A stretch of 62,288 nucleotides of DNA, the filler included, from Bipalium vagum (Eukaryota): NCBI GenBank assembly GCA_037834085.1. It is 3 parts of 3 records of this genome, joined end to end, with 100 filler letters (N's around TTAATTAATTAA, not from the genome) between each part and the next. Parts side by side here need not be neighbours in the genome. Positions count along the whole stretch, not along the records: positions 1 to 25,865 come from JBBMKC010170006.1; 2 more parts are not named here. One strand, given 5' to 3'. The translations under genes and the position numbers were made by a program. The notes below the pieces were generated by a model. That model searched no databases. It saw only the letters and a program-made list of their open reading frames with translations, and was not told the origin of the DNA. Positions 1 to 51,551 of this stretch are shown one piece after another (the first letter of the stretch is position 1; the number at the start of each line of letters is the position of its first letter).

Positions 1-69
1 GTGGTCGTCACCGTCATGGCTGCTTGCAATGAAGAAAAGATTGTCAGCTGCAAGACCATCACCAATTAA
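1..69 (+). CDS. EIF5A: Translation factor eIF5A, C-terminal end (partial)
   Basis: Frame 1 reads VVVTVMAACNEEKIVSCKTITN-TAA, matching the eIF5A C-terminal pattern (vTVlsAmgEE..i..K). An AT-rich 3' UTR with AATAAA follows. Confidence 0.8.
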   Translation: MVVTVMAACNEEKIVSCKTITN

Positions 70-2199
70 ATTCATTAATTAAAATAAATATGAGTGCTTA
101 ATTAATATTTTATTTTTATCTTCTTTGTTTTAATGTTTGTAATTTGGTTTCTTTTATTCAAAACAAAAATGTTGTGAGGTTTATTTCCAATCAAAAAGAT
201 AAATAAAAAGACCTCCGATTTCAGCGTTGATTAAGATTAAAGTAAGAGATCAAAATCATTTAAACTAAAATATCAAGTCAACTCTCACAATAAATGCAAA
301 GTGAATGAAAAATCAATTACAATGGTTTGAAATCAATTCCTTTTTGATTTGTATTTTGATAATAATAATTAAATGTTTGTTTGATTTAGAGTGATGTTCT
401 TTTTCTATTTCAAAAGAATTTTAAATTCTCTGTTATATTGATCAAATTATAATTAGACGTTTCATAATATCCAAATCTACCGATAAAATTAATAATAATA
501 ATAATAATAAATATTTTTACAGATTTATTTTTCAAAAGATTTCAAGAAAGCTTCATTAGACGAAGTTTAGTCAAAATATAAATATTTTTACTTTATTATT
601 TTATTTTAATTTTATCAAGTCTTTTTCTTTTCTTTCTGTTTTCTTAAATTATACTCCAAACAATTTAATATCGAATCTTATCTTTTTTTCCAACAGCAAA
701 TATTCAACTGTTTGTTTTGTTTCTTTGCGTTTCGGTTTTAGATTTTCTGTTTATTTTTTCATTTGGCATTTTCAAAATCTGTTTTAGTGCTATTTTTGCT
801 TTTTGAATATTTGTTTCAATCCCTGCAGCTCATTTTCCAGCAACAACCAATTTTTAAAAATTGCACATAATATTGAAAATAATAGAAAAATACGTTCACC
901 TTTTTTTAATGCCCCACCGAATTTGATGATATTAATTTTACATAAATATTTTTTACACCATTAAAATTTTTAGATTTTTATTTCCTATTTAAAAAAACTT
1001 TTTTTTCTAAAACTGCTTTTATTCAACCAGAATTGCTCAAACTTGAACAGCGGACTGGTATCGATTTGTGAATGTAAAATTGTTTCTGTCCAATTCTCAT
1101 TCCACTTTTACACAAAAATGGAAATAAAAACTAAGACGTGTGGTGAAAGTGATTTTTAATTATTTAAATAAAGAGTGAAACAGAATTTAAACAAACTGTC
1201 TTTAGTTGACCATGGAGAGTCATTTGGAATTAAAACCAAATATAAAAATGGTATAACAACAAAAGATGGAGAAGAACTATCAACATCTTTTAGTGATTTT
1301 TTCTCGTCTTATTTTTTTTTCTTTGTGAACTCTTCCTGACTGCCAACGGACTGAGGTTCAAGTGCAATTTCAAAAATGAAACTTTAGTAATTATTTGGAA
1401 TTAAATATACCGAAAATGGAGAAATAATTGGGGGGAATACTGTCAACGTACTTGTGTTTAAATAAGATGAATAAAGTAAGAGAGCGTCTCCATAAGCAAA
1501 GTAATGGTCACCATAAATGATCATCAAACACAAGGCCTTCTAAATAAAAAGAAAGAATAAGGGAAGAATCTTCACTGTTTTAATCACTTCGTGTCATATG
1601 GAAATCCAAATATGAAATAGGTACATTTAAGGGACTAGTTTGGCTTAGATGGATGAAATACTCTCAACGTAAAACCTTAGCTGGATTATTATTAATATAA
1701 CCGTAACATAATTACTAAGAAAACCGTAACAAAAAAAGATGTAAAATTGACAAATGAAAATGAAATGAATTTTAATAATTTTCGGCTACCACAACCACCA
1801 CACAAACTTATCCACTTAAAGGTTACTTTAGTTCATTGTTGATATTGTTCGTTAGAGCCAAACAGCAAGGGCTTGTTAATATTATTTTCATGGCAAAATT
1901 CAAGGTACAATCCTCCGTTAATCAACACGTTCATGAACAAGCGCTCAAAATATCAATAAAGTGCATCCTTAATGTTGTGCCAGAATACATGGGGTAAGCG
2001 AAACAAGACCTTACCATTTCCACTGCAGTTTTTTTTTCTAAAAAGTAATGAGTTTATACATGGCTATACACTGAATGGGAATGTAGTTTAACGCCTGTGA
2101 TTGGACAATTAGACTGTCATTCGGGACGTTGTTAGTTTAAAATCTGTTTCTGGAAAAAAATAAATAATAATAATAATAATAATAATAACAAAGCTTCAA

Positions 2200-2960
2200 T
2201 CTTGTAATTTTATTTTCCATAAAACTTGCCAGATATTCCAACGAGAGAGAGAATTGATATTCGGAAATCGTGTTTGATTCTGTCACGTTTTCATATTTTT
2301 GAACGCAATCCTGTCCAATGAATTCATATCTGGAGAGTAACGCGATTGCCTTGGACTCAATTTTTTCACAGAAGACTTATGTCATGACAGTCCTACGGGG
2401 ATTGCCATTATTGAAGAAAAGTTCTAAATATCAAACTCATTTCAAATCCAGGATCTTGTGAAAGAAATCCACATAACATCCAGCATTATTATAATAGATT
2501 GGTTACTCTCGAAAACTTAAAATCGGAAATCACCCCAGACATTGCTGATATTAATTATATGAAATTTCATCTCGAATATTTTCCTTCTGGTAATTTTTGG
2601 GAGATCACTCTCTGCGGCCACTCAGCACGAGTTGTCTTATTGAAAAGGTAGCGGATCGAAATACATCTATTTTTCGTCACCAACCACAATAAGAAGGTTC
2701 AGATTTATTATCAAGTTTTGTGCAAATTACACTGTCTCAAGTCTAGACATTGTGATTCTCTGCTGTTCAATGAGGAGCTCCCCTTGCATAGATGCACTTA
2801 ATTTCCTGTTTTTTAGACACAATTCGGTATACTGAAATAAAATCTCAGATCTGTAAGAGTAGGGACTTCTCTGATAAGACGTCTGACGTACAAGTAATGC
2901 TACTGAACTTTTCCACCTCTCGGAAAGCTGTTGAAGACGTCGTTTTCTTTAAATATTAAA
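2200..2960 (-). mobile_element. Decayed mariner transposase
   Basis: Minus-strand fragments IVVGDEK*MYF, VWGD and YSPDMNSLD match mariner IVTGDEKW, VWWD and YSPDL. Many stops. Confidence 0.75.
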
Positions 2961-3129
2961 TACCTTTACTGATACGACTTAAGAGGTGAGACTTAAAATT
3001 GTCACAGGTACATAGATATATGTTATGATAACGGAGAACGCTGATAAGTATCACTAAGCCAAATATAACGCGTGAGAACTGAACATCTGGACTAATTTAA
3101 TCTTTATCAAAAAGGTAACAGACAGCAAT

Positions 3130-3400
3130 TTTTTAATAAAATTCTATTTCACAGTATGGACCATGGTCTGGTGCAGGTCTCAACTTTGTAATTTTACCTC
3201 TGCAACCCTGTGGTACGTACGAAGTGTCTATTTTTCTAAGCAAAGTCGTATTCTTTATTTTAATTGTTCAAATTTTTTTGATCTCCAGTTATTTTAATAT
3301 ACAAGAGATTTAAGAAAACCAAAGAAATCTTCGATTGGACGACTTTGTGGAACATTTTTAGGATTGCGATCCTTAGGAACAAAAGGAGGAATGACATACA
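3130..3400 (-). mobile_element. Tc1-like transposase C-terminal fragment
   Basis: NPKNVPQSRPIEDFFGFLKSLVY matches the NPPNVPQ.RPIE.FW..LK..VY type of Tc1-superfamily DDE motif. Confidence 0.75.
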
Positions 3401-3419
3401 AAAAGAGGAATGACAACAT

Positions 3420-3720
3420 ATAACAAGCCTTGGATATTGGAATATTTAAATTATTCGAGGACAAATTATCGAGCATCATAAATTCCTGAAACAATTGCGA
3501 TTGTGTAGAATCCACAAGTGGTGGAAATCCAATACCACCAAATAATGAAAGAGTACGAAGTTGGATATCACATTTATGGAATCAAAGTTCAGATGAAAAT
3601 GGGAAAAGTCTTCCCATCCGACTTAGTGGTGAATTCAAAAAATGACCCCTTTGAAAACAAGGGTTTGTGGTGAGCAATGCTGTGAATTATGCAGAAAAGC
3701 TGCGATGATGGATTCAATGA
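3420..3720 (+). mobile_element. pogo-like DDE_1 transposase fragment
   Basis: *QALDIGIFKLFEDKL ... TSGGNPIPP..ERVRSWISHLW matches pogo LQPLDVG.NKPFKD ... P...V..WV..AW. Confidence 0.65.
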
Positions 3721-4144
3721 AGGTCAAATCGAAAGTATTGTACAACAAGGTTAAACATTGACTTTCATGAATACATTTCCTTGACTTTCTCGGTTATCAG
3801 TATCACTAAGCCAAACAGTATCAGAGAGCGCAACACGACACAGCTTTAATAGGATCATTGATCCCATTCGGTTCTTAACGTTGACTATAGAAAAATATTA
3901 CCTGAAAAAACTTTAAGAGGATGAAATTATGAAGTTGTCTTAGAAATGGCGGTTGGCGTGGACGAAAAATGTTTTAGTACAACTATCATTTACAAGACAT
4001 TCTTCACCAACCCCAAAGTATACTGCCAAGGAAAAGAGCAAGAGGACCGATGGTCCCCAACAGGACAATGATAATTACACCCATAAATAAAATTTTCACA
4101 GATAAAGACACTTTTTTTCGACTGTCCAATTCAAAAGTTACATT

Positions 4145-5033
4145 TCACATTGAAATGGTTTTTTTGCAGATGTTTTCTTGCTGGAACCAGTCGATGGAGC
4201 CCTTTCTCGAGGTTATGGAAATTCCGAAAAGGTTTGCTAAGGCCTGAGTCTCTTTGTTTGGCTTTCCACCCCAAAATGTTCCTGAAATGATAAAGTGCCA
4301 TTTATTGACTTTTATTTGTTCAATCAGAATCTTCAAATCAAATTGATCCGTGGTCAAAATGCCGAAAACAAGACCCCTTTTCCCAATGTCATTGGAGTAA
4401 CTTTTAATGCTTCGGTAAAAATCTAAATAGTGTGTACAAGCTCCTGTGATTAAAAACGTGACCAGATTGTTTGCCAAGACGAAATAATGAAGGGTTTTAT
4501 TATTGAAATGGGACACGAATTCCCATTTTGGCAAAACAACCATTCTGCTGTTTAAGTAAGACCCCTCTGCGACAATGATGTTGTTTTTGCTGTCAATTTT
4601 TATGGCATTCGATTTACCACCCTTCAAAATTTCATAGACCGATGCAGGCCCACGACTCATGCTAATGTTGACATTCTTCAATATTTGGTAACGAGGTCTA
4701 CTGACCCCTGCGTTTAACTAAAACAATAAAATATACTATAAAATAAGATATAACGTTAACCTTTCCCTTAAATCGATTATTGACAAATATATTGACTTGA
4801 CCGCACTCAGTATTGAATTGACATATATCAAGATAGGCAAACAGAGAACATTTCCAACCCCTGGAATCGTATATGAAAGCCTTGCACCTGACAGACTCAC
4901 ATGCAAGAGCACATGTGATGGAGTTGGGTAATATAATGTTGGTCAAGCTTTGGGATGCACAGGACTGAATTTTCTCATAGTGAACGTTGCCCTTGACATT
5001 CGTTATTAAAACCGTAATTGCGACGAGAAGCAT
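4145..5033 (-). CDS. Secreted protein: signal peptide + PAN/apple domain + TCAF N-terminal-like domain, copy 1 (exons 5033-4761 and 4717-4145, 281 aa)
   Basis: Hydrophobic start MLLVAITVLITNVKG; PAN cysteine pattern CALAC..V.CKAFIY....WKC.L; 43-nt phase-0 GT..AG intron at 4718-4760 joins two open frames; same structure in the paralog at 11730-12640. Confidence 0.85.
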
Positions 5034-5149
5034 TTTCGAAAAGTGTTCTGCAAAAATGAAAATGCATTGCATCATGTCGTTATTTATGAGATACAAAGAG
5101 GAGAATAGAGCTGAAGAAGAACAAGTACGGCAACAAATTTCCATATTGT

Positions 5150-5680
5150 TGACAAGGGTGTCTGTTGTTTTGGGTATGAATAAACAAAGAGAGTCTGCGT
5201 TCCTCAGACCGATTTCCAAACAATATTTGATGAAATGCTTTTATTTGTGAAGACAAAAGATTCGTTCTCATCGGTTCCTCTCACAATTGCTCTGGTAGAC
5301 AAAACTTTTTTCATCTACGGCTGTATCAGAGGGCGAATGCGGCGTTTCTGTCTCCGTCATTGTCTTAGAGTGAGACATGATTCCTTCGGAGGAAAAATAT
5401 ATTTTGCAGCTGATTCTCAGAAAAATAAAAGTTTACAATTAATGAGGAAACAGTAAACGATTCTTGTTCCATTCCACAAAATGAGACTTGCTTACCATTT
5501 TCCAGGGTAGCACTTGTGTTACCTTCTCCTTTAGAAAAATAGCCGTCACCGATCATGTTTCACTTTCACGTAACAACTTCTCTCTGAAGAGACTTTCATT
5601 ATTGAGTTCCCAATATTTCTCAACGAATAGGTTCAGGTCGTACATATCTTTGGAAACAATGCCTGGAGGAGGGTAAGCAT
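5150..5680 (+). pseudogene. Divergently oriented PAN-like pseudogene (homologous to minus strand ~11290-11610)
   Basis: Across frameshifts reads CEDKRFVLIGSSHNCSGRQ..SSTAVSEGECG./FCLRHC, followed by a GTGAG donor. Confidence 0.35.
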
Positions 5681-5689
5681 ATCAGTATG

Positions 5690-6400
5690 AAAAACTTTCG
5701 ATTTCCTAAATCTTATTGCTGATACTGTTAAACTCTGCCCTCCTGTGAATAAAAAGATTTATAACGGTGGTTTGAGTGACTTTGGCTTCAAATTTATTCA
5801 TAAAGCTGGTTCAAAGTCGCTTCCTATCAATGTAAGACCGTGGAATAAATGTAAAGATTCTCGTGTCTGCAGACGCTGTCACTTTTCTGACGAATCAATG
5901 ACGCATGTATTGCAAAGTTGTTTTCCGAACATGTCATTTTGTACAGATCGTCATAATGTTTGTTTAGAGGAAATTGCTGATGCACTGATATTATTGTGGT
6001 CATGGACAAGAAATGTGAGCTCTTGAGAAATTGCAACGAACGTGTTGATCTTTTGATCACACATGTTGAGAAAAAATGATTTTTCTCATTGATGTCAAAT
6101 GTCCGATGGATATCCTGGAAACTTTCAGGAATTCAGATGAATTCAATTTACCTAAATACGCAGATCTTCGTAATCGATTTCAAGTATTGAAGCCTGATTA
6201 TAAAGTTGTACTGCATACATGCATAATTGGGTCCCTAGGAACAGTACCGACAAAACAGTTGATGTTTTGGAGAAGATCGGTGTACGGATGTCAAAAATTG
6301 GTCCACTTCTCAAGGAATGTGCAACATAAAATATTACATAATCGATAAAGATTTGCTAGTGCCATGTTACAGGAATACTGAGATCTATTTAGACCTATGA
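5690..6400 (+). mobile_element. Decayed 3' end of a REL-endonuclease non-LTR retrotransposon (R2/R4/NeSL-type)
   Basis: CCHC knuckle CRRCHFSDESMTHVLQSC, then RHN, RVDLLI, LIDVKCP, KY and IIGSLG; frameshifted. Confidence 0.9.
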
Positions 6401-6499
6401 TATTCCCCGATGTCAACAAAGCTGGGCGAAGAAGGCTAAAGCAAAATTCTACTAAAGCTGAAGAGCTCAGGTGACAAATATCCATGCAGATCTACGTTG

Positions 6500-6650
6500 T
6501 CCTGAAGAAATAAACTCAAAATAAACTAGAATCAGCATGAAAATTTTAGCCAATAGAATTAAAGCAAAAAATTATAAGCTTTATTCAAAATAAATATGCA
6601 CAAAGCAAGCATGTCATATCTTAGGAACGGAAACTTATGAATTACCCTAA
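6500..6650 (-). mobile_element. Mariner 5' end / TIR fragment
   Basis: Aligns by eye with the terminus at 24490-24622 (gaatcagc..., gaattaaagcaaaaa..., aaatatgcacaaa, ttaccct). Confidence 0.6.
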
Positions 6651-7029
6651 TTTACAAAGTTTCGGTTTAGTAGCTTTACAACTTTAAAATAACCTAAGGC
6701 TTTGACTATTTAGTTTTGTTTGGCTGAACTGTTGCCAGATGAAGATTGTTATATACTGGTAATATTTAAAATTTTAATATGTATTTACTTTTATTTTAGA
6801 GTATGCATCGATTTTTCGTGAGTGAGAATTGAAGAGCGAGTCAAAATTGTACAATTGAAATATAAATATAAATTTAACAATCCTTATCTGACATTGGAGA
6901 GTTCGTCTTGTGTCATGATCACAGCTTCTGCTTGTGTCGTAGCTAGATTGGATTCTATTTCTTCTCCGAAAATGTGACATGTACAAATTACTTGAAAATG
7001 TTGAAAACTTATTCTTTGTATGTTTTTAA

Positions 7030-7330
7030 TCAATTACATCAACTTTCCCCAATGCTCTTTATATGTGATGACTCTCTTGCACATCACGGACGAAGAAGCT
7101 CAAGAATGGATATAGAAAAATTTTCTTAGAAAGAGGATTTAAAGAAGAGCGGCCATTGATTGGTCACAGAGATGACAGGACCTTATCCATGGACCTTTTG
7201 TGTGTTGTGCAGAGTTTATTCAAAACCAATTCCTTCATTGCAGGATTTAAAACAATAAATCATGGATGGACTTGCAAATATGCAAAACAAATTCTGTAAA
7301 AATTTTGCTTCTTTGTTCCTTTTACTAATC
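7030..7330 (+). mobile_element. Tc1/mariner transposase fragment
   Basis: RRAAIDWSQR*QDL resembles GR.G..WPPRSPDL. Confidence 0.5.
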
Positions 7331-8269
7331 TGGAATTTATAGTATCTGAAGTTCTTGATACCATTTTAATATTTATTCTGATGATATGGCGGAGTAGATT
7401 TTCCGTGTGTTCGTATATGTCAAAAAATTGCTTCTCAAGACTGTAGGACTACCCTGTCCTGAAGAATCTAATGTTGTTTTCCGATCAAAATTGATAATAT
7501 TTCGTCAATATTTCACTCAAACATGTTAGAAAGAATAATCTTGAGAACAACACCCCTCCATAGCAGTGAGCGTATAAAAGCGAGCGGTGTTTGCTGCAGG
7601 TTGTGATTTCATCAACGATGCGACTTCAATTTTAATGAAATTAACCTCAAATACCTGCCTGGAGACTAAAGACAGACCCAGTGATTGATCGAAACTAAGA
7701 CCAGTCCGAAGTAAAACGGTTTTTTAATTAAAGGCTTACACAAAAATTCAATAAATTGGTCGTCACTAAACTTCGTTCATATTAAAGTGCAATTTCACAA
7801 TTATCTCGGATGAAGTTTATTATTTACCTTTTGTTTTTTTAAAGTTTTCCAAGCATTTTCAAGACAGTACCGCTGATGTGGTTCGACAAAACGATGATAT
7901 AAATGCGTTGCTGTCATTGGGGACGCTCGAAGGAGAAAATGTAAGTTTTGATTATTAAATCAATATTGTTTTGGTTTGAAAACTCTCGGCCTTTTTTGAA
8001 GACCGCTATAATTTTCTTTTATTTTTTTCAGTGTGAGAATTTTAATTCTTAAAAATTTGGACTTTTTTGGTCTCAAAAGAGAAAAGAAATTTTATTACGA
8101 AAAATAGAACCGGAAAAATCAATTTTGATTAATTTGTTCTTTTCTTATTAATTAATAAAATTCTTTGGTAAAGTTTTCCGACATAATTCACTTTTATCGC
8201 ACTTGTTTTAATATTCCAATTAATTCAACTTCGAACGGCGCTCGTTTGATCGAACTATCTTTGTTTTAG

Positions 8270-8476
8270 ATCGCCAAACTTCGCACGGCAGTCCAGTCGA
8301 TCCCCGGAGAGTCCGTTTTTGGCAAGTACCGATTCCTGCCACTCTTCTTCGCGCTGGGGGCTCTCATCGAGTTCAGCATGATCAAGCTGACGGTGAACGG
8401 CGTCAACTTTTACTCGACCTACAAACGGCGCCACGGGATAAGTGTGCCCGAAGGAGAACACGACGATTTGACTTGA
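8270..8476 (+). CDS. SMIM4: SMIM4/UQCC5 (complex III assembly factor, sloth1-like), copy 1 coding exon; start codon not located
   Basis: IAKLRTAVQSIPGESVFGKYRFLPLFFALGALIEFSMIKLTVNGVNFYSTYKRR...-TGA matches SMIM4 (PG..FG.YRFLP.FF.LG..E..MIK.....FY..Y.R). Begins right after the acceptor ttgttttAG. Confidence 0.9.
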   Translation: MAKLRTAVQSIPGESVFGKYRFLPLFFALGALIEFSMIKLTVNGVNFYSTYKRRHGISVPEGEHDDLT

Positions 8477-9252
8477 TTGTGTGGTGAAAATAAATGTTTG
8501 TTTGGTTTTTGAGAGGATTTTTCTCGTTGGATATTTCTTTAGAAGAGAGCAGTGGTATCTCTTAGATAGAAACACTGCGGCTGCGTAAAAATGAGTAAAA
8601 TGTCGTCGGTGCCATGGCCACATTCTCCCGGTTATGAATTATGTGTCACTTCTGAGCCCTGGTGGTTAAGATCAGGACAAGAAGAGGAACTCTTTTTTTA
8701 TCGTCGCTGAGGTCCGGTGAATAAACCAAGCAATGAAGACACCTCGGCCATACTTCCCTGTCTTCGTTGCCGTCGTTGATTGACCATTTCCCAATCTCAT
8801 TATTGGATTATCTTAAAGGAAGACCGTTCCGTTTTTTTGTGCAAACACGGTGCAAAGGGTTGGTGGAATCAATAGTTACCAGGAACACGTTGTCCAAGTT
8901 TATTTCGTTAGATTATCGACCCCTTTTGTAATGTTTGTTACGACCTTACGTCACAAAGGTATTTTATTATTGACGGAGATGAAGCGTTCCTACTACCAAG
9001 GTAAAAGTCTTCAGGAGCCTCCATCATCCTTCACCTCAATCCTTGACACATTTACCTGTGGTGATGACTGTTTCAAAGTGTCTGGAGCTCGTTGTTCTGG
9101 GAAGTACTTCTCAGTGAATTTTCCAGTGCTTAGACTTGGAAGTGACGAAGTGTCTTTGAGGACAGAGAGGGCCCAGTTGACGTTGTGGTTCGATCGATGG
9201 CAATTGTCTTCGGCCTGTCCGCATGAGTCTTCGCTGCTGTCTTTGTTACACC

Positions 9253-9490
9253 GCCAATTGGCCGGAGAACGCAGCTCAATTTCCGGGGATAAAATGCTCT
9301 GGTCTTAACTGATTGCTTTCCTTTTATATCTCATCGATTTACCCTGCACCCTTTTCGCATAATTCCAAATTATTTTCATTAGCTGTTGACTGTCATTTGG
9401 GACACTCAAGATCGTCTTAAAATTCACTGTCATTTATCACAAGGGTAGGAAGCACTCTTAAACGGATTTTAGAACCGAAATCTCCGAATT
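9253..9490. repeat. ~240-bp dispersed repeat; inverted copy at 13086-13325
   Basis: The reverse complement aligns colinearly with 13086-13325 (aattcggagattt, gagtgcttccta, cagtgaattttaagacga, gagatataaaag, ctccggcc). Confidence 0.85.
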
Positions 9491-9779
9491 GACATTGTTA
9501 CCCTACCCCTAAAATTGAATCCGTGGACATTGTTTTAAAATGTCGAGGATCAGATAATGAGGGTCGCATAAAAGTCGTGGCTATTTGAAAGCGAAACAGT
9601 TCACTCTTACCGAAGGATATTGAACCAGCTTTTATTGATTATAAAATGGTTTCATTCTTAAGTGATGAATACCGTTGGCTCATTTTATAAGGATTCATTT
9701 TTCAAGATAAGCACTTTTCGTGATGGAGTCGTCAATCGGAGTTTCCAGGAAACCAATTTAGTATGGTCTCAATGAAAAG

Positions 9780-10550: not shown

Positions 10551-11729
10551 AAATTCCATAACCTCACATTCAAAGTCTTGGAAGTAGTGCTTGGTTACCA
10601 ATAGGTCGGTAGAAATCTGAGTGCGCCCTTCTTTCTCTCATTCCTCTAGTTAAGAGTCTAGTGCAAAGTAACTCGCACAGTTTGATGATTGATTCAAACA
10701 CGTTAACTCATATCACCAATGAAACAATGCATGATGATAATAAGAGTCAAATGAGAGTTAACGATGGGTCTTAAGGGATTTGGTCGTTTATCTACAAGCC
10801 GGTTGGGCTTTTCTAACATCTCAAGGACCGATTGCCAACAAGTGTTGAGCTGATGATTGTTTTACTAAGTTATTTTTCTTTGTGTTTATTGCAAAAAAAG
10901 AATAAAAAGGCATCTTGAAATATCTGTGATCAACAAATAATCATTTGGTCGGTTTCATTGATTATTTGTTATCATTGATTATTGGTTTACATTTTCTTGA
11001 TTGTTATTTTGTTTGATCGATTGACCTTTTCTTTGATTAATTGGGTTTAGAACAGTCAATCGTTAACTCGAATCATTCATTGATTTTCACTGTGTACCAT
11101 TGTGGTGATTGAATAAAGATTTAAATGTGATCATTTTGATTCCATTCTCTTTGAATAGGTTATTAAGTAAAGTTAAACAGTCAGTAAAACTTGGGCCTAA
11201 AAGTTACAAACATTCTCATAATAGTAACGTGTAACAAGACGATATCATAAATGTATATTGTTCACATTCACACAAAGGTATGTTTAGTCTCATTTTGCGC
11301 AGAGGAAGCGGAATTGTTCGCTGTTTCTCTCTAAAATAAAAACTTTCATTTTCTCAGACAAGAGACTGCAGATAAAAGGTCTCATTTCTCACTCTAGGAC
11401 AATGACGGAGACAGAAACGCCGCATTCGCCCTCTGATACAGTCGTAGGTGAAAAAAGTTTTTGTCTACCAGAGCAATTGTGAGAGGAACCGATGAGAACG
11501 AATCTTTTGTCTTCACAAATAAAAGCATTTCATCAAATATTGTTTGGAAATCGGTCTGAGTAACGCAGACTCCCTTTGCTTATTCATACCCAAGACAACA
11601 GACACCCTTGTCAAGAATATGGAGATTTGTTGCCGTACTTGCTCTTCTCCAGTTCTATTCTCCTCTTTGTCTCTCATAAATAACGACATGATGCAATGCA
11701 TTTTCATTTTTCCAGAGCACTTTTCGAAA

Positions 11730-12640
11730 ATGCTTCTCGTCGCAATTACGGTTTTAATAACGAATGTCAAGGGCAACGCTCACTATGAGAAAATTGAGTC
11801 CTGTGCATCCCAAAGCTTGACCAACATTATATTACCCAACTCCATCGCATGTGCTCTTGCATGTGGGTCTGTCAAATGCAAGGCTTTTATATACGATTCC
11901 AGGGGTTGGAAATGTTATCTGTTTGCCTATCTTGATATATGTCAATTCAATACCGAGTGCGGTCATGTTAACATATTTGTCGATAATCGTTTTAAAGGAA
12001 AGGTGCACCTTTTACATAATTTTTTTAGTATATCTTATTGTTTCAGTTAAGCGCGGGGGTCAGTCGATCTCATTTCCAAATATTGAAGAATATCAACATT
12101 GATTTGACTGGTGGGTATGCATCGGTTTTCGAAATTATCAATGGGGATAGGTTGAGTGCCATAAAATTTGACAGCAAAAACAACGTCATTGTCGCAGAGG
12201 GGTCTTATTTAAACAGCAGAATGGTTGTTTTGCCAAAATGGGAATTCGTAGGCAATTTCAATGAAAAAAGTCGTCGGTTTTCTGCTTTGGCAAACAATCT
12301 TGTCACGTTTTTAACCACAGGAGCTTGTACTCATTATTTAGATTGTTACCGAAGCGTTATAAACTGCACTAATTACATTGATGAAAAGGGTCTTGTTTTA
12401 GGGATTTCGGGAATGGATCTGTTTGATTTGAAGATTTTGATTGAACAAATAAAAGTCAATAAATGGCATTTTATCATTTCAGGAACATTTTGGGGTGTAA
12501 AGGCATATTCAGACACTCAGGTTCTAGCAAACCTTTTTGGAATTCGTATAACTTCGAGAAAGGGCTCCACCGATTGGTTTCTGCAAGAGCAAATTTCGAA
12601 GAACATTTCAACTGTTTCTTCTGTAAAATGTACCTTTTAA
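11730..12640 (+). CDS. Secreted protein: signal peptide + PAN/apple domain + TCAF N-terminal-like domain, copy 2 (exons 11730-12002 and 12047-12640, 288 aa)
   Basis: Inverted paralog of 4145-5033; 44-nt phase-0 intron gtgcac..tttcag at the same codon; both frames open. Confidence 0.85.
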
Positions 12641-13599
12641 ACTTTCGAAAAAATTGTTTTCACACCTTTGCTGACTTGATCTTTGAAACTTCAGAAGTAA
12701 TATAATTGCGATTGTTACGTTCAGAGGTCATTGGTCTTCCGTGTACTTTTTTTTTAGTTTATTATATGTGCTTGTCGAATTTCCAAGATTAGATCAGGAT
12801 CCGCATTTAGGAACCGACTTAGGTTATTACCTAAAAAAGGAATTGATATTAAGAATATTGGTGTAAGACTGAGGAATCGTTTGAGGCGCCTCAGTGGACT
12901 TCCATAAAAACAGAGCTAGCAAGATTTTTATTTGATTGAAAATTATTGATTTGAAACGTCAGAAGAAATTTATTGCGGGAAACAAAATCAGTTTATGATT
13001 ATGTCAGTTTTTATGTGACAGGAGCCCACAATCTCACCCTCGATATGTCAAAACAGAATCAATGTTTGGGGTAAGGTAACCCTGACAATTCGGAGATTTT
13101 TGGTTCGAAAGCCGTTTAGGAGTGCTTCCTACACTTTTGATAAATGGCAGTGAATTTTAAGACGACCTTGAGTACTGTAAAGGACAGTCAACAATTAATG
13201 AAAATAATTTGGAAATATACGTGAAGGGTGCACGGTAAATCAATGAGATATAAAAGAAAAGCAATCAGCTAAAACTAGAGCATTTATACCGGGAAATGGA
13301 GCTACGTACTCCGGCCGATTGGAAGTGTATCGAAATTACGTGTGGCATTCACATGGTCTTCATATTGTGACGTGAACTTTGTATAACCGAGTCGTTTAGA
13401 AGTTTAACTTTGACCTTTGGTCCAAAGCTCAGAATTCGACCTCCAAAGCGATGTATCATCTTTGGATTTGTTTGTGATTAGCAACATTCAATTGGAGTCC
13501 CACTTGGTGATAGATTGACCATGTTCTGCTTTCAATTGAACTGTGGGAAACTATGATCGCAGAAAATCTAAAATAAGAACGTTCAAAACAAGAGTCTCT

Positions 13600-14153
13600 G
13601 TTTCGGCGGATCCCCCTCAAATGAGCGGTCATGAGTATGAACAGAAGGCACAATGATGTACGCGATATCTTAGTTGATTTGTTGTCCACACTTAAAGGAA
13701 TGGGAAATACACGTCGAAAAGAAAGAAAATTTTTCAGGAAAAAACTTAATTCCTGTTATACAATTAGTAAATAGGAGGCATAAAAGATACATTATTATAG
13801 ATGTCAAAGTCCCCTTTGAATCAGAGATTTCTATCAAGGGCAATGACGAAGCAAACAAGTAAAAGTATCAGACTTTGTTGGACGAAGCTCAATCCGAGCT
13901 CGGAAGAACATGGTACCACGATATCAGAACATTTATAATCGGAGCCGGGGGTTCGTGGATCCCATCAAACTACCAAAAACTCGGAGCATTTGGATTTAAA
14001 TTAGCAGAAATTAACTCAATTATGGAAAAATGTGCAACCAGGACGACCATTAATATCCACAATATCTGGAAAAAATTCATAACCAGAGCAGAGACAAACA
14101 TTTTAAAAAAACTTCCCCGTATCAATGACAACCATATCTTTGATTTGAAATAA
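13600..14153 (+). mobile_element. REL-endonuclease non-LTR retrotransposon 3' fragment
   Basis: RHNDVRDILV, IIIDVKVPFE, *KYQ and TFIIGAGGSW; same family as 39360-40150. Confidence 0.88.
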
Positions 14154-14891
14154 ATCACTGTTTTTGTTTTTTTTTATAATGCAACGTAAATGTCAATTCA
14201 GAAAACTGCCAGAAGTCTGAGGATCTATATTTAACCAGGAAGATTGATGACAGGAGCTTTTCACCTGAAAATAAACGTTTCCTCTCTCAACGTTCCGGAG
14301 CTCTTCAGTGTGAATTGAATGAGAAGAATTGATTTGGAACCTCACTTTGTTTCACTCTCTGATTCGGTCCAACGAAATTGGCTTATCTCTTCCCTTGTCT
14401 TCCAGCTTCATTTATGCCCAAACCACTGTCATCATCATTTCGTCTTGATCCTCTCTACATATGAAATCGGGAAGGGGTCAATCACTGACTGCTTTAGAGA
14501 CCAAGGGAGAATACATCCCACTTACTTGATATATTCTTTATGGATCTTCCTAGAGAAGTCTCGAGCCAAGGATAAGGAGATTAAGATTAAGTTCTGGACA
14601 GAAACGATCGATGATCTTTCCACAAAGAATCAAAGATGAGTCCTCGTCATTTCACATCCATTTTCAGAAATGAAAGAAAAGTGTCCTGATTTCAACTGCC
14701 AGGGGTCAGAATTGATGAACAATTCACGACCGAGAGAATGTGGCAATGGCACCGACGATATTTTACTCTTGCCAAAACCGGAGTGCTCTCATAAAAGATG
14801 GAGTGCTACTTACCCCTTCGAACGAAGACTCTAATCAGAACCGAAAAACAAACTTTCAAAAACCAAAAAAAAAATTATTTTCACCACACAA

Positions 14892-15098
14892 TCACGTCAA
14901 ATTGTCGCGTTCTCTCTCGGACAAACTTATGCCCTGGCGTCGTTTGTAGGTTGAGTAAAAGTTGACGCCGTTCACCGTCAGATTGATCATGCTGAACTTG
15001 ATGAGAGCCCCCAGCGCGAAGAAGAGCGGCAGGAATCGGTACTTGCCAAAAACGGACTCTCCGGGGATCGACTGGACTGCCGTGCGAAGTTTGGCGAT
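14892..15098 (-). CDS. SMIM4: SMIM4/UQCC5 copy 2 coding exon (inverted duplicate)
   Basis: Same 207-nt exon, acceptor and TGA as copy 1; carries E->K and K->N in the E.(S/I)MIK motif and a divergent C-terminal tail. Confidence 0.85.
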   Translation of the reverse strand: MAKLRTAVQSIPGESVFGKYRFLPLFFALGALIKFSMINLTVNGVNFYSTYKRRQGISLSERERDNLT

Positions 15099-15395
15099 CT
15101 AAAACAAAGACAGGTCGGTCGATTGGAATATTAAAACAAGCGCGATAAGAGTATTTGGACGAAGGAAAACTTTACCAAAGAATTTAATTAATTAAGAAGA
15201 AAAGGACGAATGAATCGAAATTGATTTTTCTGGTTTCATTTTTCGAAGTAAAATTATTTCTTTTTTCTTTTGAGACCGAAAATGGTCCAACTTTTAAAGA
15301 ATTAAAATTTTAACACTGAAAGAATTTAAGGAAAAGTCTCGCGTTCTTCAATAAGGGTGTAGAGTTTTCAAAGCTAAACAATATTGATTTAATTA

Positions 15396-15664
15396 TCAAA
15401 ATTGCGGTCTCTTCTGCGAGTGGGTAGCGAAGTATTCTTTGACAAGAATATCTTTAAAACAAACACAATGAGAGCAATCCGAAACCAGATTTTCATCTAA
15501 AAAGAAAATGATCAATACAATTGCCCTGTTCTGTCTCTTCAAATATTAAATGGAACACATCATTTTGGGCATTTCCTTCGGGATATGTCCCGTCAAGTTG
15601 GGTTGCTTTGGATGCCGATAACATAATGATCGACAGCAACACCACAATGAAGACAGCTCTTCAT
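15396..15664 (-). pseudogene. Small secreted-protein-like gene with a 1-nt frameshift after ATG and a 22-nt intron
   Basis: ATG-a-RAVFIVVLLSIIMLSASKA looks like a signal peptide; removing gtattgatcattttctttttag (15497-15518) restores a frame to ...SDCSHCVCFKD... Confidence 0.35.
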
Positions 15665-15699: not shown

Positions 15700-18130
15700 G
15701 ATTGTAACAATAACTATCTGTGATATTTGGACATATTCAGTGTTATTATTTTGTTTAAAGATCTTAATTTTATTGATCTAGCACGTAGATTGGTTGTGAA
15801 ATAAAATTTTGTATATACAAAAGAAATATCATTTAAAGCTTGAGAAAAGTGATTCTTAATATTTGACATTTTATTTATGTTAACATCATTCATAATCGTT
15901 TCGCTACGGTTACCACGGCCCGAAAGACGTGATGTGATACTGTAAGAACTTTGAAAACTAAGTGCTCTTTTACGAATTCTACGAATAAGTTTTGGACAGA
16001 TGACCAAGTTATCCGTATTATATTGGTTACTGATTAAATGAAAAATACATCTACAAATGTTCCACAATCGTAACCATTGTTTGCCTATTCACTTTCAACT
16101 TACGATCAATAATCTAACATCCATTCCAAAAGCAACGTTCAAAGCCGAGTTCAAAACCCGAATCTGTTTTTGCACATATTCTAGCATGAACGGAACAGGA
16201 AGAGAGACGAAGTAGAACAATATCGAGCCAGTCTTGCAATAAACAAATGCGATCCAATGCTTATATTCAAAGGACGGAATTGTGAATTTAAGTAAAACTG
16301 AAGTAAATGAAATTCGGGGTGAATTGTCAGCAAACTGGAAAGGAGATTTGGTCAGGTCAAAAGTATTGACCCTTCATGTTATTGTTGGTGATTTGGTACT
16401 TTGTCATCCCTCAGTGGCTATTGAATCAATCTGGTGACATTTTGTCAACATTTGTTTCTTTTGACTTTTGCCCGTATGGCAAACGAACCAAAAGAAAATC
16501 ATTTGAGTCAGCGAACGATAATAGACAGTTTGAGAATCACGGATGAAAATGAGACTTGACCAACATTCTTTTGAGCTAATAAACTCATTTGTGATTTCGG
16601 AAAGATTTCTTGTTCCCAGATTGTTCAACTGTCGTTCGGAAAACTCAAATGTACTCCAAACGAGGACGTTTTTGTCAAGAATTGTGTTCGGGGCCCTGTC
16701 GAGCTTGAAGACTGATGAATTCTCTGACTGAGGTCGGAACAAAGTAATATTGATTTATGAATAACGGTCATAGACATTTAAATAGCGCAATGATTTTGTT
16801 GTGCTTTATCTTATTTTATGTTTACCATGTTCCATTGTCATTATTGTTTTCCATTAACGTTTGTTATTTGTGAGACTCGTGGAAGAGAGAGACTCTTCCC
16901 ATTCTTAGAACACGAGACATTTTGGTGCAGTGATTTGAGACAATTGACAACTTGGGCAGTCGCGTATGAGGACATTGATATTTTTGGGGGTGGCTCAGAC
17001 ATTGATTGAGTGATCGTAGTTGACGTTGTTGTGCTTATCGATTAAATAACGATTTTAGCCGTACATGTTGCTTTATCTTATTGTTTAAACTGTTTTACTT
17101 ATTACCGAACAGAACCATGTGATTATCGGAGGCAGATTGTAAACGGAGCTTGATTGATATCAATATTAACATTTTCATGACCCTGTGAACAATCATTTTA
17201 AAAATTCCCTCTTGTCAGACCCAACATATTTATAATTAGGATATTTTTTAAGAGAAGAAACGACGGCGGACCGAAAGTATTGCGAGGTCACGAAGTATTC
17301 CAAAAAATAATCTTTGAAACTTCAGTTAGAAGTGTACTTAAGAAGTTTTAACTCCAATTGAGGGAATATCGATAACACCAATTAGTTCAAGAATCTCAAA
17401 AATAATTATCTAAGGAAAGGCACTTCTCCAAGATTCGCCCAGGTCTGTGGAGAACTTGCGATACTCACATCAATAAAATATTTAAAAGTTGACGACGAAG
17501 ATTTGTTTGAATCAAAGATTCATTTTGTTAGGTTTAATTGTTACGTCGAAGATTCGTTTTTGATAACGACGTCAGAAGAATCATATTTGTGTTGACTGAC
17601 TCCAGAGACATTTACCTGTCGAAATATTATTATACAAGTAAATTTGACTTTTTTTCTTCAATTATAGAACAGGGTTATCTTCAGATCCACACCATCAAAA
17701 GATTTATTTCTCAGTGATCTGTAGGAGATCAGCTGATAGTTCGGAAGTCTGAGAAGGACTGCGTGGTATGGGTAAGAGTACCACTTTTTACCTTTTTACA
17801 TTATATAAAATTCTATTACGTGTTCCTAATTTGTTTTTGTTTGTGTTATCCGTTATTCACTTTAATTGTGGTTTTTGATAATACTCAATAATAAAGGTGT
17901 GACCATTTGTCTTCTTTCATTAACAATTTGTTACTTGATATCATTGTTAATTTGGGCGTTTTATTTGTTTCAACTTGGTGATCGATGTCATCGGCCACTT
18001 GATAACTGATATCGTTGCCATTCTGCGTCTGTGTGTCTTTGTGTGTTGCTGTTGTTTTGTGATATAAATACACGTTATTAGTTTATTGATCTTTGTTGAT
18101 TACGCCAACTGCTGGTGATGCGAGTGACAT
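15700..18130 (-). pseudogene. Decayed extracellular-protein gene: Thr/Ser-rich stalk + EGF-like + laminin-G-like modules
   Basis: TTTSTTITQSMSEPPP stalk; degenerate EGF CLKSLHQNVSCSKNGKS..NGKQ; LamG-like FRPQSENSSVF...NLGT...ISSKECWSSLIFIRD; many stops. Confidence 0.45.
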
Positions 18131-18479: not shown

Positions 18480-21300
18480 TTCAAAAGAGTCATCTCAAAA
18501 GGAGATCTTACAAAATGGTACCACTCTTTGCTACAAGTTTCATATTGTTAATCTCTAAGGGACGAATCTCTTTCCAAACCTTTATGAGACTTATGTTGTG
18601 GTCAAAGTGCGCTAAAGGCTCTTTGGGCTCATAGAACGTCTTAAGAGTGGTATTTTAGAAGATTATGTTTTGCCCCGTCTGCTAGTGAAAATGACATCAT
18701 CAAGGTCTTGACAAAAAGCAATATATGTGGACCTTAAAGAGGATCAGTTTATACATACATTGATCTCTGCAAATGGCTTCTCAAATTGCACAAAACGGTC
18801 TATTTTTTGAAGGGAAACTCATTCAGCCGTTGACAAAGCGGGAATTTTTTGAAAAATATTACTTCTCCAGTTCCACCTAGGAACAATGGTATTCGTGGAC
18901 CATGATTCCTTAGCCAGTGAAGAAATCGTTCAGCGTGTTTGAAACCGAAAGATGCCTTTAACTGACCAGGTCTTGTCAAAGGAGAATTTGAATCTAACAA
19001 TGTCAGAAACAGACCCGCTTCGACTCAAGATGTGAAGCCCCACTGGGCACTCTCAGACGACCTCTGAGTTGTACCAATCATGACAAGGATCACTGTTAAG
19101 AAGGACTGTTTTGCTAATTCCTTAACTGCTGTCGCCTCGATCTGGCTTCATTTGACAATTGCTCAATTACCAAACGTCCTCTCAAAATCATTTCGCGCTC
19201 AGCTGAACGCCGACGAAGGGGAGTGCTTCCACTTGAGCGGAAGGCGATAATGATCCGGCAGTAATCACATTCCGCGCTGCTCTAACGCTGTCCAAATTAA
19301 ATCTCTCAGTTCTGAAAACCAACAGACACCAATTCTCAACCGCTTTCCTATGGAAATTAAGCCAACACCCGGAGGCCCACTTCCCACAGTACCCTGTCTC
19401 CATTTCACAGCCTTTGGAGAGTGGCAGACCACTAATGCCAATCTTCGCCATTTCCCCTTCAGTGCACATTACGATCATCATATTACGCTGACATCAATGG
19501 ACCAAGGGAGAAAGGGAGAAAGAGCCACGGGGGCTTCCAGATTGGAAGGATGGTCGTTGCCATCGGACGGCACGGCGAGAGGCCGAGGCGAATGGACAGT
19601 GAACCCACGCTCCCGGCTACGACTTCTCGCTCAATTAAACCCTAAATGGTTCGAAAACAAAAGCACTCGACTTCGGAAGGAACTTTATTTAATCAAGACA
19701 AAAACGTTTCACACGACCCTCCTCAATCCTCGTATCGGCCGAATCTGGAATGGCGAAATAATAATCAAAAACCAANNNNNNNNNNNNNNNNNNNNNNNNN
19801 NNNNNNNNNNNNNNNNNNNNNNNNNNNNNNNNNNNNNNNNNNNNNNNNNNNNNNNNNNNNNNNNNNNNNNNNNNNNNNNNNNNNNNNNNNNNNNNNNNNN
19901 NNNNNNNNNNNNNNNNNNNNNNNNNNNNNNNNNNNNNNNNNNNNNNNNNNNNNNNNNNNNNNNNNNNNNNNNNNNNNNNNNNNNNNNNNNNNNNNNNNNN
20001 NNNNNNNNNNNNNNNNNNNNNNNNNNNNNNNNNNNNNNNNNNNNNNNNNNNNNNNNNNNNNNNNNNNNNNNNNNNNNNNNNCACTAAGGGCTTTGTGACA
20101 GAGGCTCCACCAACCTTCTCTTCGTGAGCTCCCAATCGTCCCATCCGTTGACCGGGGTGAAGCGCTTCTTCCCGTTCCTGAAACGATAAAGATTTTCAAT
20201 GTGTATTTATCCCTTATGACAAAGTCCTCATGAAGATGGTCAGTGTGAAGGTGGTGACTGTGGGCGATGAATATTGAGGCTGACCATCTTTCAATTCGTG
20301 GAGAAATGAAAGGATTACTTTTCAATGAACAGCGAAATGGGAAAGGCGTTGACCAGACCCCAGAGTGACAGAGCAGACAATAATCAGATTTCCTCTCTAA
20401 AGACCCTCAAGGTGTATCTTTAACAAAAAAGGGCTTCTTAAAGAAGCGTATTCGTAAAAATGAAGCAGCAAAAGATTCTCATCAGTCACGACCTTTTCAG
20501 TTTATTGTCCCTATCTCATAGTAGCAAATTATCAATCTCAGAGGCCTAAAGGTCTCGCAAACAGAGATCACCCATCATTCTACTTTCTTGACACATTGCC
20601 TTCACACGTTCTTCTCTTTTTATCTCTGGCGGAGCCTCTCCTTTGCCCCTCTAGTGACAGATGAGGCCGAAGGCCAATGAGTCCAGATTGGACTCTGGAT
20701 GCATTTTAGCAAGAATTCGGCCCACTCAGCGACATTATCACGACGAAATGTTATCGCCCTCTTTTTCTGGAAGAGGAGATTATCCCAAGCTACTTTGAAC
20801 AGGTAAAACATTTCCATGGAGAGCGGCAATAAAAGCCTCAGCCGCTCGCTCAGCGCCGGAATGATGTTGACATATAAAACTAATGGAAATGGAAGCGAGA
20901 CTCACGGTTTGTGGGCCAGATTCCAGTCGTCGAATCCAGCGAGCCGAGAAAGTCTTTCGGAAGCCATCCTGAATAAATCATGCTCAAAAATGCCATTAAA
21001 AGGTCGTAAAGCAGTCAGCATTATCAAGCCCTGCAATAATTGGTTCCGGTTCTCACTCTGCCTCAGAGCGGCCGGCCGCAGGGACAGCGACACGGAGGAG
21101 GAGCGGCTCGTTGCGCGCTCCGCTCGTCTCCGCGCTCCGTCCACCCCTTTCGCTGGCTCGGTCGAGCCTCGGTAGCGTGAGAACGGCCATCACCACCCCG
21201 TGCTTTTACGACGACGTTACCTGGCTGCTGCTCCCGCTCCCGCAGAGAAGCTCTCGACCATGACCGGAGACAGCTGGGCAATAAAAAGCCCCATTATCAT
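18480..21300 (-). mobile_element. Highly decayed non-LTR retrotransposon body (RT region spans the N gap)
   Basis: Relatively GC-rich block with degenerate RT-like motifs in the expected order (RP..., YFAIPD similar to LAFADD, VITAGSLSPSAQVEAL similar to the R2-type thumb). Confidence 0.45.
19776..20081. other. Assembly gap (306 N)
   Basis: Run of N. Confidence 1.
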
Positions 21301-25865: not shown

Positions 25866-25965
25866 NNNNNNNNNNNNNNNNNNNNNNNNNNNNNNNNNNN
25901 NNNNNNNNNTTAATTAATTAANNNNNNNNNNNNNNNNNNNNNNNNNNNNNNNNNNNNNNNNNNNN
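25866..25965. other. Artificial contig spacer N44-TTAATTAATTAA-N44
   Basis: Palindromic 12-mer with stops in all six frames, flanked by 44 N each side; identical to 43102-43201. Confidence 0.97.
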
Positions 25966-28189: not shown

Positions 28190-29000
28190 ATAACTCCGAC
28201 ACTAATAAAAAAACCTTCTCACTAATCTTTCTTATGCTTCCTTCTCCAAATACGTTCTGATTAATGCTCATCAGAAAATTCTTTATTTCTGTCTCTTTGG
28301 CTTATTTGCATTTTATGACCATTCCACATGCCTCCAATTTTATTGGTATGGACACCAGTAACAGGATTTTTATGTTACTGAACCGTTCCATATCCATATC
28401 CGTGTTTGCTAATTCCAGTATAGGCTTTCCACGTGTAAGTATAAGTGATAGATTCTGGTTTGACATGTTTTGTGGTATTTTCCAATAAAGTATTCCAGGA
28501 TCGGTCTGGTACTTTTGTTAAAAATATCTTTTTCGCCTGTTTTTTCAATACCACCGAGAACCCCTGCCTATTTAACGTGATGTCCTCGATAATATTTTCT
28601 TTTCGCCATTTTTGTTTTATCTATCTCTACTTTTATCCTTTCACCTCCAATAATAGCATCTTCGAAATCTAATGACTTGCATATTATAGTTTGAAATAAT
28701 TTCTGAAAATAGCAAACGGTTTTTGGACTTGTTTCATGCAATCCTTAGTGGATACTGCTCGCACTTTATTTAACCAGTAATATGCAATCAACAATATTTT
28801 GGAGTATTGAATACTATGGCCTTCAAAATAAGAATCTTTTCTCATTGGTACTGTCTTCTTGCATATTTTGATTCCACGCCTGAATCTTTTATTCCCCATT
28901 TTCAGATTCACGGGTTTCTGGCATTGTGGATAAATTCTTGCAATTTCTAATATATTTCTTTCGAATAGGAATTTTTGCACTTTTCTTCATTTAATAATAT
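28190..29000 (-). mobile_element. Decayed Merlin / ISXO2 (IS1016-like) transposase
   Basis: RKDSYFEGH, LIAYYWL, KVPDRS..TL, HVKPESITYTYTWKAY and NPVTGVHTNKIGGMW. Confidence 0.88.
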
Positions 29001-32371: not shown

Positions 32372-33561
32372 GGTACTATTGTACAAAAAAACCCTGTATA
32401 TAAAAAAACACTATACACACACTATTTTATTGCGTGTGTATATTTTAATGACTATTTTTAAAATATTTATTTATAAAAATAGGTCGACTAAGCATGGGAC
32501 CAAAAATGGAAGAATATTTCGGATCGATTGCCGAATTTCTCCCTCCACAAGAATTCCTGCGGATAATCGATATATGTCTTTGTTGTAGGTATTTAATCCA
32601 TGCGACTTTTTCATCTTCATTTTGAAGCGCTTCCACATTTTGGGTATGAGCTCCAGTTATGGGATCCACAAAATTCACAGAATGGTTTACTGTAAAGTGT
32701 TAATACCCCTGCGGCAGATTTCTAATCCCGCCTTACGAAGCCCACAGGCCTGACATGATTGTGGTACCTGTGAAAAATTTATTGCTATGAATATTTAAGA
32801 AAATTAGAATAATGTACTGCTGAATAATTGGTAGGAGAGTACTGGCATCTCGCTTATCCACGAGCACTAAAAATGAATTTCCACGTTCTTTCCCATCAAA
32901 CATCCATTAATTAGGACGTATAATTCTGCTTCTGTCATATTTTCTTTTGGAGACACATGTCTCATCAATTTCGACAATTTTTTCAATTCCTCCAATATTT
33001 TGTGAGTGACTAATCAAATATTCGGCGCATATGTCTCAAAAATATTGATTCCACTGCACTATGGATTTTTGAGATTTATGGCACCAAAGAAAATTAAGAT
33101 GTATTATTTTCTTCTTTGAAATGTGAGCATTTTCGAAGAATGTGTCCTTAAACATTGAACACGATGTCTTTGACTGTTCATTTCTCTCAGTTCCAGCGAT
33201 GACATATCCATTTCTTCACATTCCTTGACAATGTCATTGGATTTCATAGTTATGACATATTCGACTATGATGAATTAATCCCTATTAAATTTATTTTGGT
33301 AGCTGAATAATAAATTATTTTTAATTAATAATAAATATTACTTATATCTGTGATTGTCATTTTCTTCAAAGCTTCAAGTGCATTACTAGTAGCTATATTA
33401 AAAGTATTAAATTAAAATGTATTTAAATAAAAATAGTCATTAAAATATAAAATAAAATAGTTTATATATAGTGTTTTATATATACAGGGTATTTTTGTCA
33501 TTAAAATATACACACGCAATAAAATATTGTGTATATACAAGGTTTTTTGTGCAATAGTACC
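32372..33561 (-). mobile_element. Merlin element with both TIRs and an 8-bp TSD (AAAAAATC); transposase decayed
   Basis: Ends GGTACTATTG...CAATAGTACC with long imperfect inverted subterminal sequence; TSD at 32364-32371 and 33562-33569; IGGIEKIVEIDET, TVNHSVNFVDPITGAHTQNVEAL. Confidence 0.95.
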
Positions 33562-43101: not shown

Positions 43102-43201
43102 NNNNNNNNNNNNNNNNNNNNNNNNNNNNNNNNNNNNNNNNNNNNTTAATTAATTAANNNNNNNNNNNNNNNNNNNNNNNNNNNNNNNNNNNNNNNNNNN
43201 N
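43102..43201. other. Artificial contig spacer N44-TTAATTAATTAA-N44
   Basis: Same structure as 25866-25965. Confidence 0.97.
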
Positions 43202-51360: not shown

Positions 51361-51551
51361 ATTATTAATATTATTATATTATTATTATAGAATAATTACT
51401 CAATCAATTAACTCTTAGTTTGTTTATTGAATGGTTCTATTTTTTGTCAATAATTTCGAATGAATAAAATCAAGGATTTTATAAATGACCACTTTTGAAT
51501 ATGTTAATAGTGAAAAAATAAAAATTATCTCTTTATAATTCCTGCAATAAG

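Follow-up and report, generated by a model that had tools for sequence, protein, structure and literature searches.

The window analysed here, a stretch of 62,288 nucleotides, is AT-rich animal DNA in three pieces separated by runs of N at 25866-25965 and 43102-43201. Each spacer consists of 44 N, TTAATTAATTAA and a further 44 N; it looks like an artificial join between separate scaffolds whose ends are (AAT)n. The first piece, which is more GC-rich than the other two, carries three inverted duplications: a pair of PAN-domain genes (4176-5488 and 11286-12588, 86.5% identical), a pair of SMIM4 exons, and one unexplained stretch (9247-9555 and 13031-13329, 81.3%) in which a coding signal was not found. 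The arms of the SMIM4 duplication, 7926..8679 on the + strand and 14682..15420 on the - strand, are 79.6% identical overall and share a tract, 8258-8340 in arm 1, that is identical in both. Similarity further upstream, beyond 7926 and 15420, is not significant (58/100, 10/100 and 3/100 shuffles by region). A very high-copy repeat lies at 5700..6520 (+), where the summed contig depth reaches up to 37,000 compared with 28, more than 1000 times single copy. Repeated DNA runs on as far as about 7320 and so limits the unique region upstream of the first SMIM4 exon; over 7326-7960 the depth is that of single-copy DNA or close to it. The segment 5700-6520 has Cys/His and endonuclease-like motifs and no Pfam match; we take it to be the end of an R2/NeSL-type non-LTR retroelement, and the ORF at 13863-14150 looks like the C-terminus of such an element. 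Decayed mariner remnants, with Pfam matches to Transposase_1 and HTH_48, and one LTR-retrotransposon remnant, with a weak aspartyl protease match, are found in five other regions (50886-51378, 57265-57858, 55748-56900, 28687-28986 and 32448-33200), and we assume that pieces of a Merlin-like transposase are among them. A GC-rich island (0.64) at 21000-21300 gave no Pfam match in frames of at least 50 codons.

Copy 1 of the SMIM4/UQCC5 coding exon occupies 8270..8476 (+), 68 codons followed by TGA, and copy 2 occupies 14892..15098 (-). The two exons score 80.8 and 82.2 bits against the PF15114 (UPF0640/SMIM4) profile, for which the cut-off is 27, and the best matches in an Atlas search were to UPF0640 (0.92-0.93). 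A word-based protein search with SMIM4 alone gave no match, and a metagenome scan returned one locus, a bacterial-type chance match that was set aside. A profile-free HMMER search had 172 matches at E <= 0.001 (150 of 172 listed). The initial annotation had the reading frame opening right after an in-frame TAG and about three residues short of the human start. Both statements hold: ATC GCC stands immediately 3' of TTGTTTTAG, with the TAG of the latter in frame, at 8270 (+) and again at 15098 (-), and in vertebrate-type homologues such as P0071 and P0081 it is residue 5 that matches codon 2. The first codon is ATC in both copies, and the only in-frame ATG of copy 1 is at codon 37, within the membrane region. 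The putative spliced-leader acceptor (8258..8269, +) ends in TTGTTTTAG, is in phase 0 and is the same in copy 2, and its last nine letters match the acceptor of the coding intron in PAN copy 1. Downstream of the exon a poly(A) signal is predicted at 8489..8494 (+), where AATAAA is followed by a GT/T-rich tract; copy 2 has AATAAT. Compared with the SMIM4/UQCC5 family (UPF0640, PF15114; sloth1 in Drosophila), a complex III assembly factor, copy 1 is alike in passing the Pfam cut-off and in keeping the key residues P12, G18, P24, F27, G30, E34, F47 and Y48, every family-invariant residue being present. It differs in having an exon without a start ATG, and in the absence, from both copies, of the intron after Asn-Phe (site 8408-8413), where 60 of the 154 homologue rows have a read-through Cys.

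The ATG-less SMIM4 exon is real. The single sequencing run that was found, X1 (share 0.91, no library record), behaves like DNA, and its contigs match the window with zero differences or gaps over 6441-8340 and 8311-9000. No sign of an assembly error at the ATC or in the T run at 7834-7840 is seen in X1, where the letters agree, with the proviso that the assembly itself may have been built from X1 and that rare variants drop out of contigs. Copy 1 is reached by a single unbranched contig (6441-8287, depth 28.2), the second copy has its own contig at a depth of 21.9, and the common 83-nt contig 8258-8340 has a depth of 50.4, that is, 28.2 + 21.9. At 80% identity or more there are two SMIM4 copies only in X1. 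It had been proposed as a refutation that the two copies are untranscribed fragments of a complete gene elsewhere; no third copy of at least 80% identity is present in the X1 contigs, and a more distant one may exist. Copy 1 was also considered as a retrocopy, a reading that was rejected given that no A-tail lies 3' of the exon and that a genomic poly(A) signal is present.

The neighbouring PAN-domain genes bear on both the splicing and the history of the locus. Copy 2 of this pair (11278..12640, +) has a donor at 11278, an acceptor before 11716, an ATG at 11730 and one short coding intron; copy 1 (4145..5495, -) has a donor at 5495, an acceptor before 5047, an ATG 14 nt later and a coding intron of 43 nt. 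With the rough, home-made weight matrix by which all splice sites were scored here, the donors of this 43-44 nt coding intron are very weak (-1.0 in PAN copy 1). The pair (11730-12640 + and 4145-5033 -) is predicted to encode secreted proteins of about 280-290 aa. The PAN match itself is weak (E 0.003, below the cut-off), and for the C-terminal part of about 195 aa a word-based search and an Atlas search with PAN exon 2 gave no homologue. A frame of 88 codons is open on the opposite strand of both copies (11516-11779 - and 4984-5247 +). The tracts 11390-11980 and 4780-5370 are 92-99% identical, non-coding 5' DNA included, compared with 75-92% in exon 2, which suggests gene conversion or an unrecognised element. 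The initial annotation correctly placed the acceptors of both PAN genes (exon starts 11716 and 5047) 14 nt ahead of the ATG. Their use as support for trans-splicing does not survive, because a strong donor is kept at the homologous place in both genes (11278 and 5495), 438 and 448 nt upstream of the acceptors, and an ordinary 5'-UTR intron explains the latter. Both donors stand where the similarity of the PAN copies begins.

Comparison of the two SMIM4 exons suggests that they have fared differently. Residue 34 is Glu in all 154 aligned homologue rows and in copy 1, and Lys in copy 2, a change upheld in X1 at a depth of 21.9. Copy 2 has in addition lost the AATAAA (now AATAAT) and the GTAAGT donor of the type found at 7941. 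That all three lesions fall in one copy has a chance of 1 in 4 and is not significant alone; Glu34Lys is the telling lesion, and from it copy 2 is likely to be decaying. Since copy 2 is damaged, being kept in both copies is an unsafe filter for functional sites, and only copy 1 needs a working start. Copy 1 has a GC3 of 0.74, compared with 0.37-0.42 in the PAN exons. Between the two exons there are differences at 2 of 121 non-synonymous and 3 of 41 synonymous sites of codons 1-54, and the flanks of the exon differ by 15% upstream and 22% downstream. The non-synonymous deficit relative to the 15% background has a P of about 7e-7, and the difference between synonymous and non-synonymous sites a P of 0.10. 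The exon looks to be under coding constraint. Gene conversion could account for the exon identity in place of selection, and it is a live alternative because the PAN pair has non-coding tracts that are 92-99% identical. In Drosophila, loss of the orthologue sloth1 is reported as lethal (PMC9681215).

If conversion did act here, it may have spread a defect, and both copies could be dead: an ATG would have changed to ATC and been carried to the other copy, the gene being lost or a distant copy existing elsewhere. This would suit an ATC only a single change away from ATG at a position where a start is plausible, the 83 identical bases spanning that start, which suggest conversion, the damage to copy 2, and the setting of the locus as a rearranged duplication among repeats. 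However, copy 1 has no other lesion and retains a poly(A) signal and a high GC3, X1 has no third copy at 80% identity or more, and unlike in a retrocopy no poly(A) tail follows the exon (though the Asn-Phe intron is absent). We think that there is only a slim chance that both copies are dead.

A working copy 1 could obtain its ATG by cis splicing, in which a small upstream exon carrying an ATG is joined to 8270 either directly or through an intermediate exon, copy 2 being a fragment that never had or has lost that exon. In 6351-8290 the strong splice sites are three acceptors (6800, 7845 and 8032) and one donor (7941). The latter, a consensus GTAAGT (7941..7946, +), lies 329 nt upstream of the SMIM4 exon. 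It was dismissed earlier as out of frame and absent from copy 2; the absence is correct and the frame is not, because the donor is in phase 0 with 57 open codons of the SMIM4 frame upstream of it. With copy 2 apparently decaying, the loss of the donor there says little. None of the 57 codons is an ATG; what does lie out of frame is only the ATG at 7903. Acceptor and donor together predict a single-copy exon of 96 nt (7845..7940, +) that has strong sites at both ends and is open in the SMIM4 frame with no in-frame ATG. The region's strongest acceptor (8010..8031, +; exon start 8032), which the initial annotation did not mention, is retained in copy 2 (15315) and bounds with donor 7941 a predicted intron of 91 nt. 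The donor that had been singled out as kept in both copies is a weak candidate, TTG/GTAAAG at 8165..8173 (+), in phase 0, with the G of GT at 8168 and a score of -0.5. It is indeed present at 8168 and 15175 with an in-frame TAA three codons before it, but its retention is unremarkable because the flank is 85% identical and a 9-mer survives at that level in about 23% of cases (0.85^9). A possible TATA box, TATAAAAG, at 7573..7580 (+) belongs to a motif with 12 matches in the window compared with 7.8 expected, which is not significant.

The roughly 950 single-copy bases upstream of copy 1 contain no cis in-frame ATG path through good splice sites. There are 32 ATG paths in 7321-8269; among the best 15 of 32, those scoring above -1.5 need an exon of 1 nt, and the next-ranked go through a weak donor at 7405. 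The stretch common to both copies has no ATG path in either. Further upstream, the ATG exons at 6818 and 7018 sit in repeated DNA, and a candidate cis first exon at 6800..6823 (+), in which an ATG stands five codons before a phase-0 GTGAGT, is in moderately repeated DNA. Six ATG/GT sites are present in 1-8269, each scoring -1.4 or lower. A good one-intron ATG path is present in 55 of 300 shuffles, so its absence is usual by chance. For copy 2 a phase-0 GTAAGT (16103) with an ATG seven codons upstream (16098..16124, -) lies 1005 nt before the exon; a cis path through it was rejected as chance level, such a path being present in 66 of 300 shuffles. Both copies also have upstream an ATG start that is hydrophobic and resembles a signal peptide, at 7810-7842 (+) and at 15496-15389 (-), and the similarity of the two is marginal. 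The one belonging to copy 2 opens an ORF of 35 codons directly after an acceptor. The one belonging to copy 1 runs for 10 codons before its stop; across a T run on which X1 agrees, it is shifted by one base relative to the open frame of 7845-7940.

Cis splicing draws support from the in-frame donor at 7941 and the open exon 7845-7940, from the candidates at 6818, 7018 and 7405, and from the damage to copy 2. The weak donors in the PAN coding intron function, so weak cis paths such as that from 7405 might do so too. Nielsen and Wernersson 2006 (PMC1626468) moreover report that short conserved proteins often have a phase-0 intron just after the start codon, the first coding exon being ATG-only or very short. 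Copy 1 resembles these start-codon introns in that it, too, encodes a short conserved protein whose second codon follows a phase-0 acceptor, and it differs in that no upstream ATG/GT has a good donor, the best of the six sites scoring -1.4. The candidate exons are also weak or within repeated DNA, and constraint on both copies would place the start within the stretch common to the two, where there is no ATG path. A path through 7845-7940 would add at least 32 residues, several of them acidic, to a protein in which the Met is usually 11-20 residues before a conserved Pro. We regard a cis-spliced ATG as unlikely.

A Met at least 7 residues upstream of the conserved Pro is present in 146 of the 149 homologue rows that have a residue at that Pro. 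By a nearest-Met rule applied to predicted proteins, the distance (n=146) is mostly 11-20, with 65 rows at 14-15, 9 at 12 and 8 at 11, and 23 of the 146 are at 12 or less. An AUG supplied by a leader at the 8269 acceptor would give 12 and the ATC, read as a former ATG, would give 11, at the short end and within the range.

These distances also allow a non-AUG start, in which a message that is unspliced, or cis-spliced from 7940 to 8270 or through 8032-8167, would begin at AUC 8270, at UUG 8165 or at a CUG, UUG or ACG in 7845-7940. Splicing from 7941 would give the ATC a favourable context, with A at -3 and G at +4, and the codon is 11 residues before the conserved Pro, as is the Met in 8 of 146 homologues. 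In addition 7942-8269 is free of ATG on the + strand where 3.3 are expected (P 0.021), as are 5 of 455 matched windows, and the equivalent stretch of copy 2 has one ATG (P 0.30). An ATG-free 7942-8269 is a hint, and a post hoc one, of a scanned 5' leader rather than an outron. Against this, AUC is among the weakest near-cognate starts, UUG 8165 has a T at -3, messages with 7845-7940 would carry competing out-of-frame ATGs such as 7903, and no non-AUG case for SMIM4 is among the literature matches listed. A non-AUG start strikes us as quite improbable.

The initial annotation had offered SL trans-splicing or UUG initiation. The two arguments given in support fail, and UUG 8165 becomes a weaker non-AUG option; SL trans-splicing nevertheless stays the best single explanation of the copy 1 start, with in our judgement about an even chance of being right. 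What we found is a phase-0 acceptor heading a conserved ORF that has no ATG of its own. Taking the host animal to be a flatworm and copy 1 to be transcribed and translated, a leader RNA of flatworm type ending in AUG would be trans-spliced to the acceptor at 8269 and joined at 8270. The product would be Met followed by 68 encoded residues, the conserved Pro coming 12 residues after this Met, and from its homologues the protein would act in mitochondrial complex III assembly (PMC9681215). The ATC, a single change away from ATG and with a G next to it on the 3' side, may be an old ATG; it would have been free to decay once the leader AUG stood ahead of it, although we draw this weakly. For the region 7941-8160 our guess is either a cis-spliced outron or the tail of an upstream cistron that stops some 100 nt short of the acceptor. 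An AATAAA at 8154..8159 (+), ATTAAA in copy 2, is about 100-110 nt before the SMIM4 acceptor; coming after the predicted 91-nt intron and an in-frame stop, it would suit such an end; an upstream gene for it was not found. Within the window alone there is no Rfam match to an SL RNA and no tRNA, and ATGGTRAG is at chance level (4 compared with 3.0 expected).

This arrangement has close parallels in the published flatworm systems. According to PMC12582326, every flatworm SL reported ends in ATG. In S. mansoni the SL AUG is given as in frame for 28% of trans-spliced transcripts, with more than 40 cDNAs needing it (PMC9851317, citing Cheng 2006), and in Echinococcus 143 of 187 SL-bearing clusters become full length when read from the ATG of the SL (PMC3510090). 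Planarians are described as carrying out trans-splicing (PMC10899757). The mechanism goes back to Cheng et al. 2006 JBC (cited in PMC9851317, PMC12582326, PMC3510090 and PMC5832876), and copy 1 is like its targets in having an ATG-less conserved ORF behind a phase-0 acceptor. Further likenesses are the extra cis donors and acceptors upstream and the AATAAA about 100 nt away. The 5' region of trans-spliced flatworm genes is reported to contain, commonly, cis donors as well as several acceptors, SL acceptors are also cis-spliced in 66% of cases on average, and the median intercistronic distance in S. mansoni is 99 bp (all PMC12582326), with a peak near 100 bp in Macrostomum (PMC8629364). A difference is that SL-joined messages are known in those systems, whereas copy 1 is known here as genomic DNA. 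SMIM4 as an SL target has no match in the supplements of PMC5832876, PMC6530080 and PMC3510090, whose tables may give gene ids only, and is absent from the main text of PMC12582326; SMIM4, UQCC5 and UPF0640 do not appear among the SL literature matches listed.

The SMIM4 family itself says little about the host. In a tree from a 54-column alignment the query stands beside a bdelloid rotifer, an acanthocephalan and one further record (support 0.88), a grouping that is probably long-branch attraction. Of 30 proteins and 53 rows looked up, the named homologues are from arthropods, molluscs, tardigrades, a rotifer, an acanthocephalan, corals and vertebrates, and no flatworm is among them. Among the literature matches listed, nothing pertinent was found on AUG-ending leaders in rotifers and allied groups. 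Two more unusual outcomes can be envisaged, either an AUC as the only start of an intact animal SMIM4, with cis splicing providing its good context, or a leader that donates an AUG outside the flatworms, with the former ATG decaying to ATC, and we consider it improbable that either is the case. In the fly and some other animals the gene is reported as part of a bicistronic sloth1/sloth2 unit (PMC9681215), whereas a BRAWNIN/sloth2 ORF was not found in the window; near either copy the best tblastn E among the matches listed, for one of two queries, was 0.49. Three homologues, P0057, P0062 and P0194 (from a bdelloid rotifer and two others), are predicted to have SMIM4 fused to a BRAWNIN-like part, with PF14990 matched on P0194, and this fusion echoes the bicistronic layout.

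We have found that this SMIM4 exon is real and has no ATG, and the likeliest reading is that copy 1 is an ordinary case of the known flatworm SL-AUG mechanism. If a leader does supply the AUG, SMIM4 would add to the targets of a mechanism described in 2006. A non-flatworm host or AUC initiation, if true, would matter more. For genome annotation, the SL reading would mean that small mitochondrial genes without a genomic ATG are missed or mis-started by gene finders. Such misses might explain the absence of flatworm SMIM4 among the named homologues, which is a weak hint given that most matches are unnamed. For the gene itself, the ATC would then nicely illustrate how trans-splicing can make a start codon redundant.
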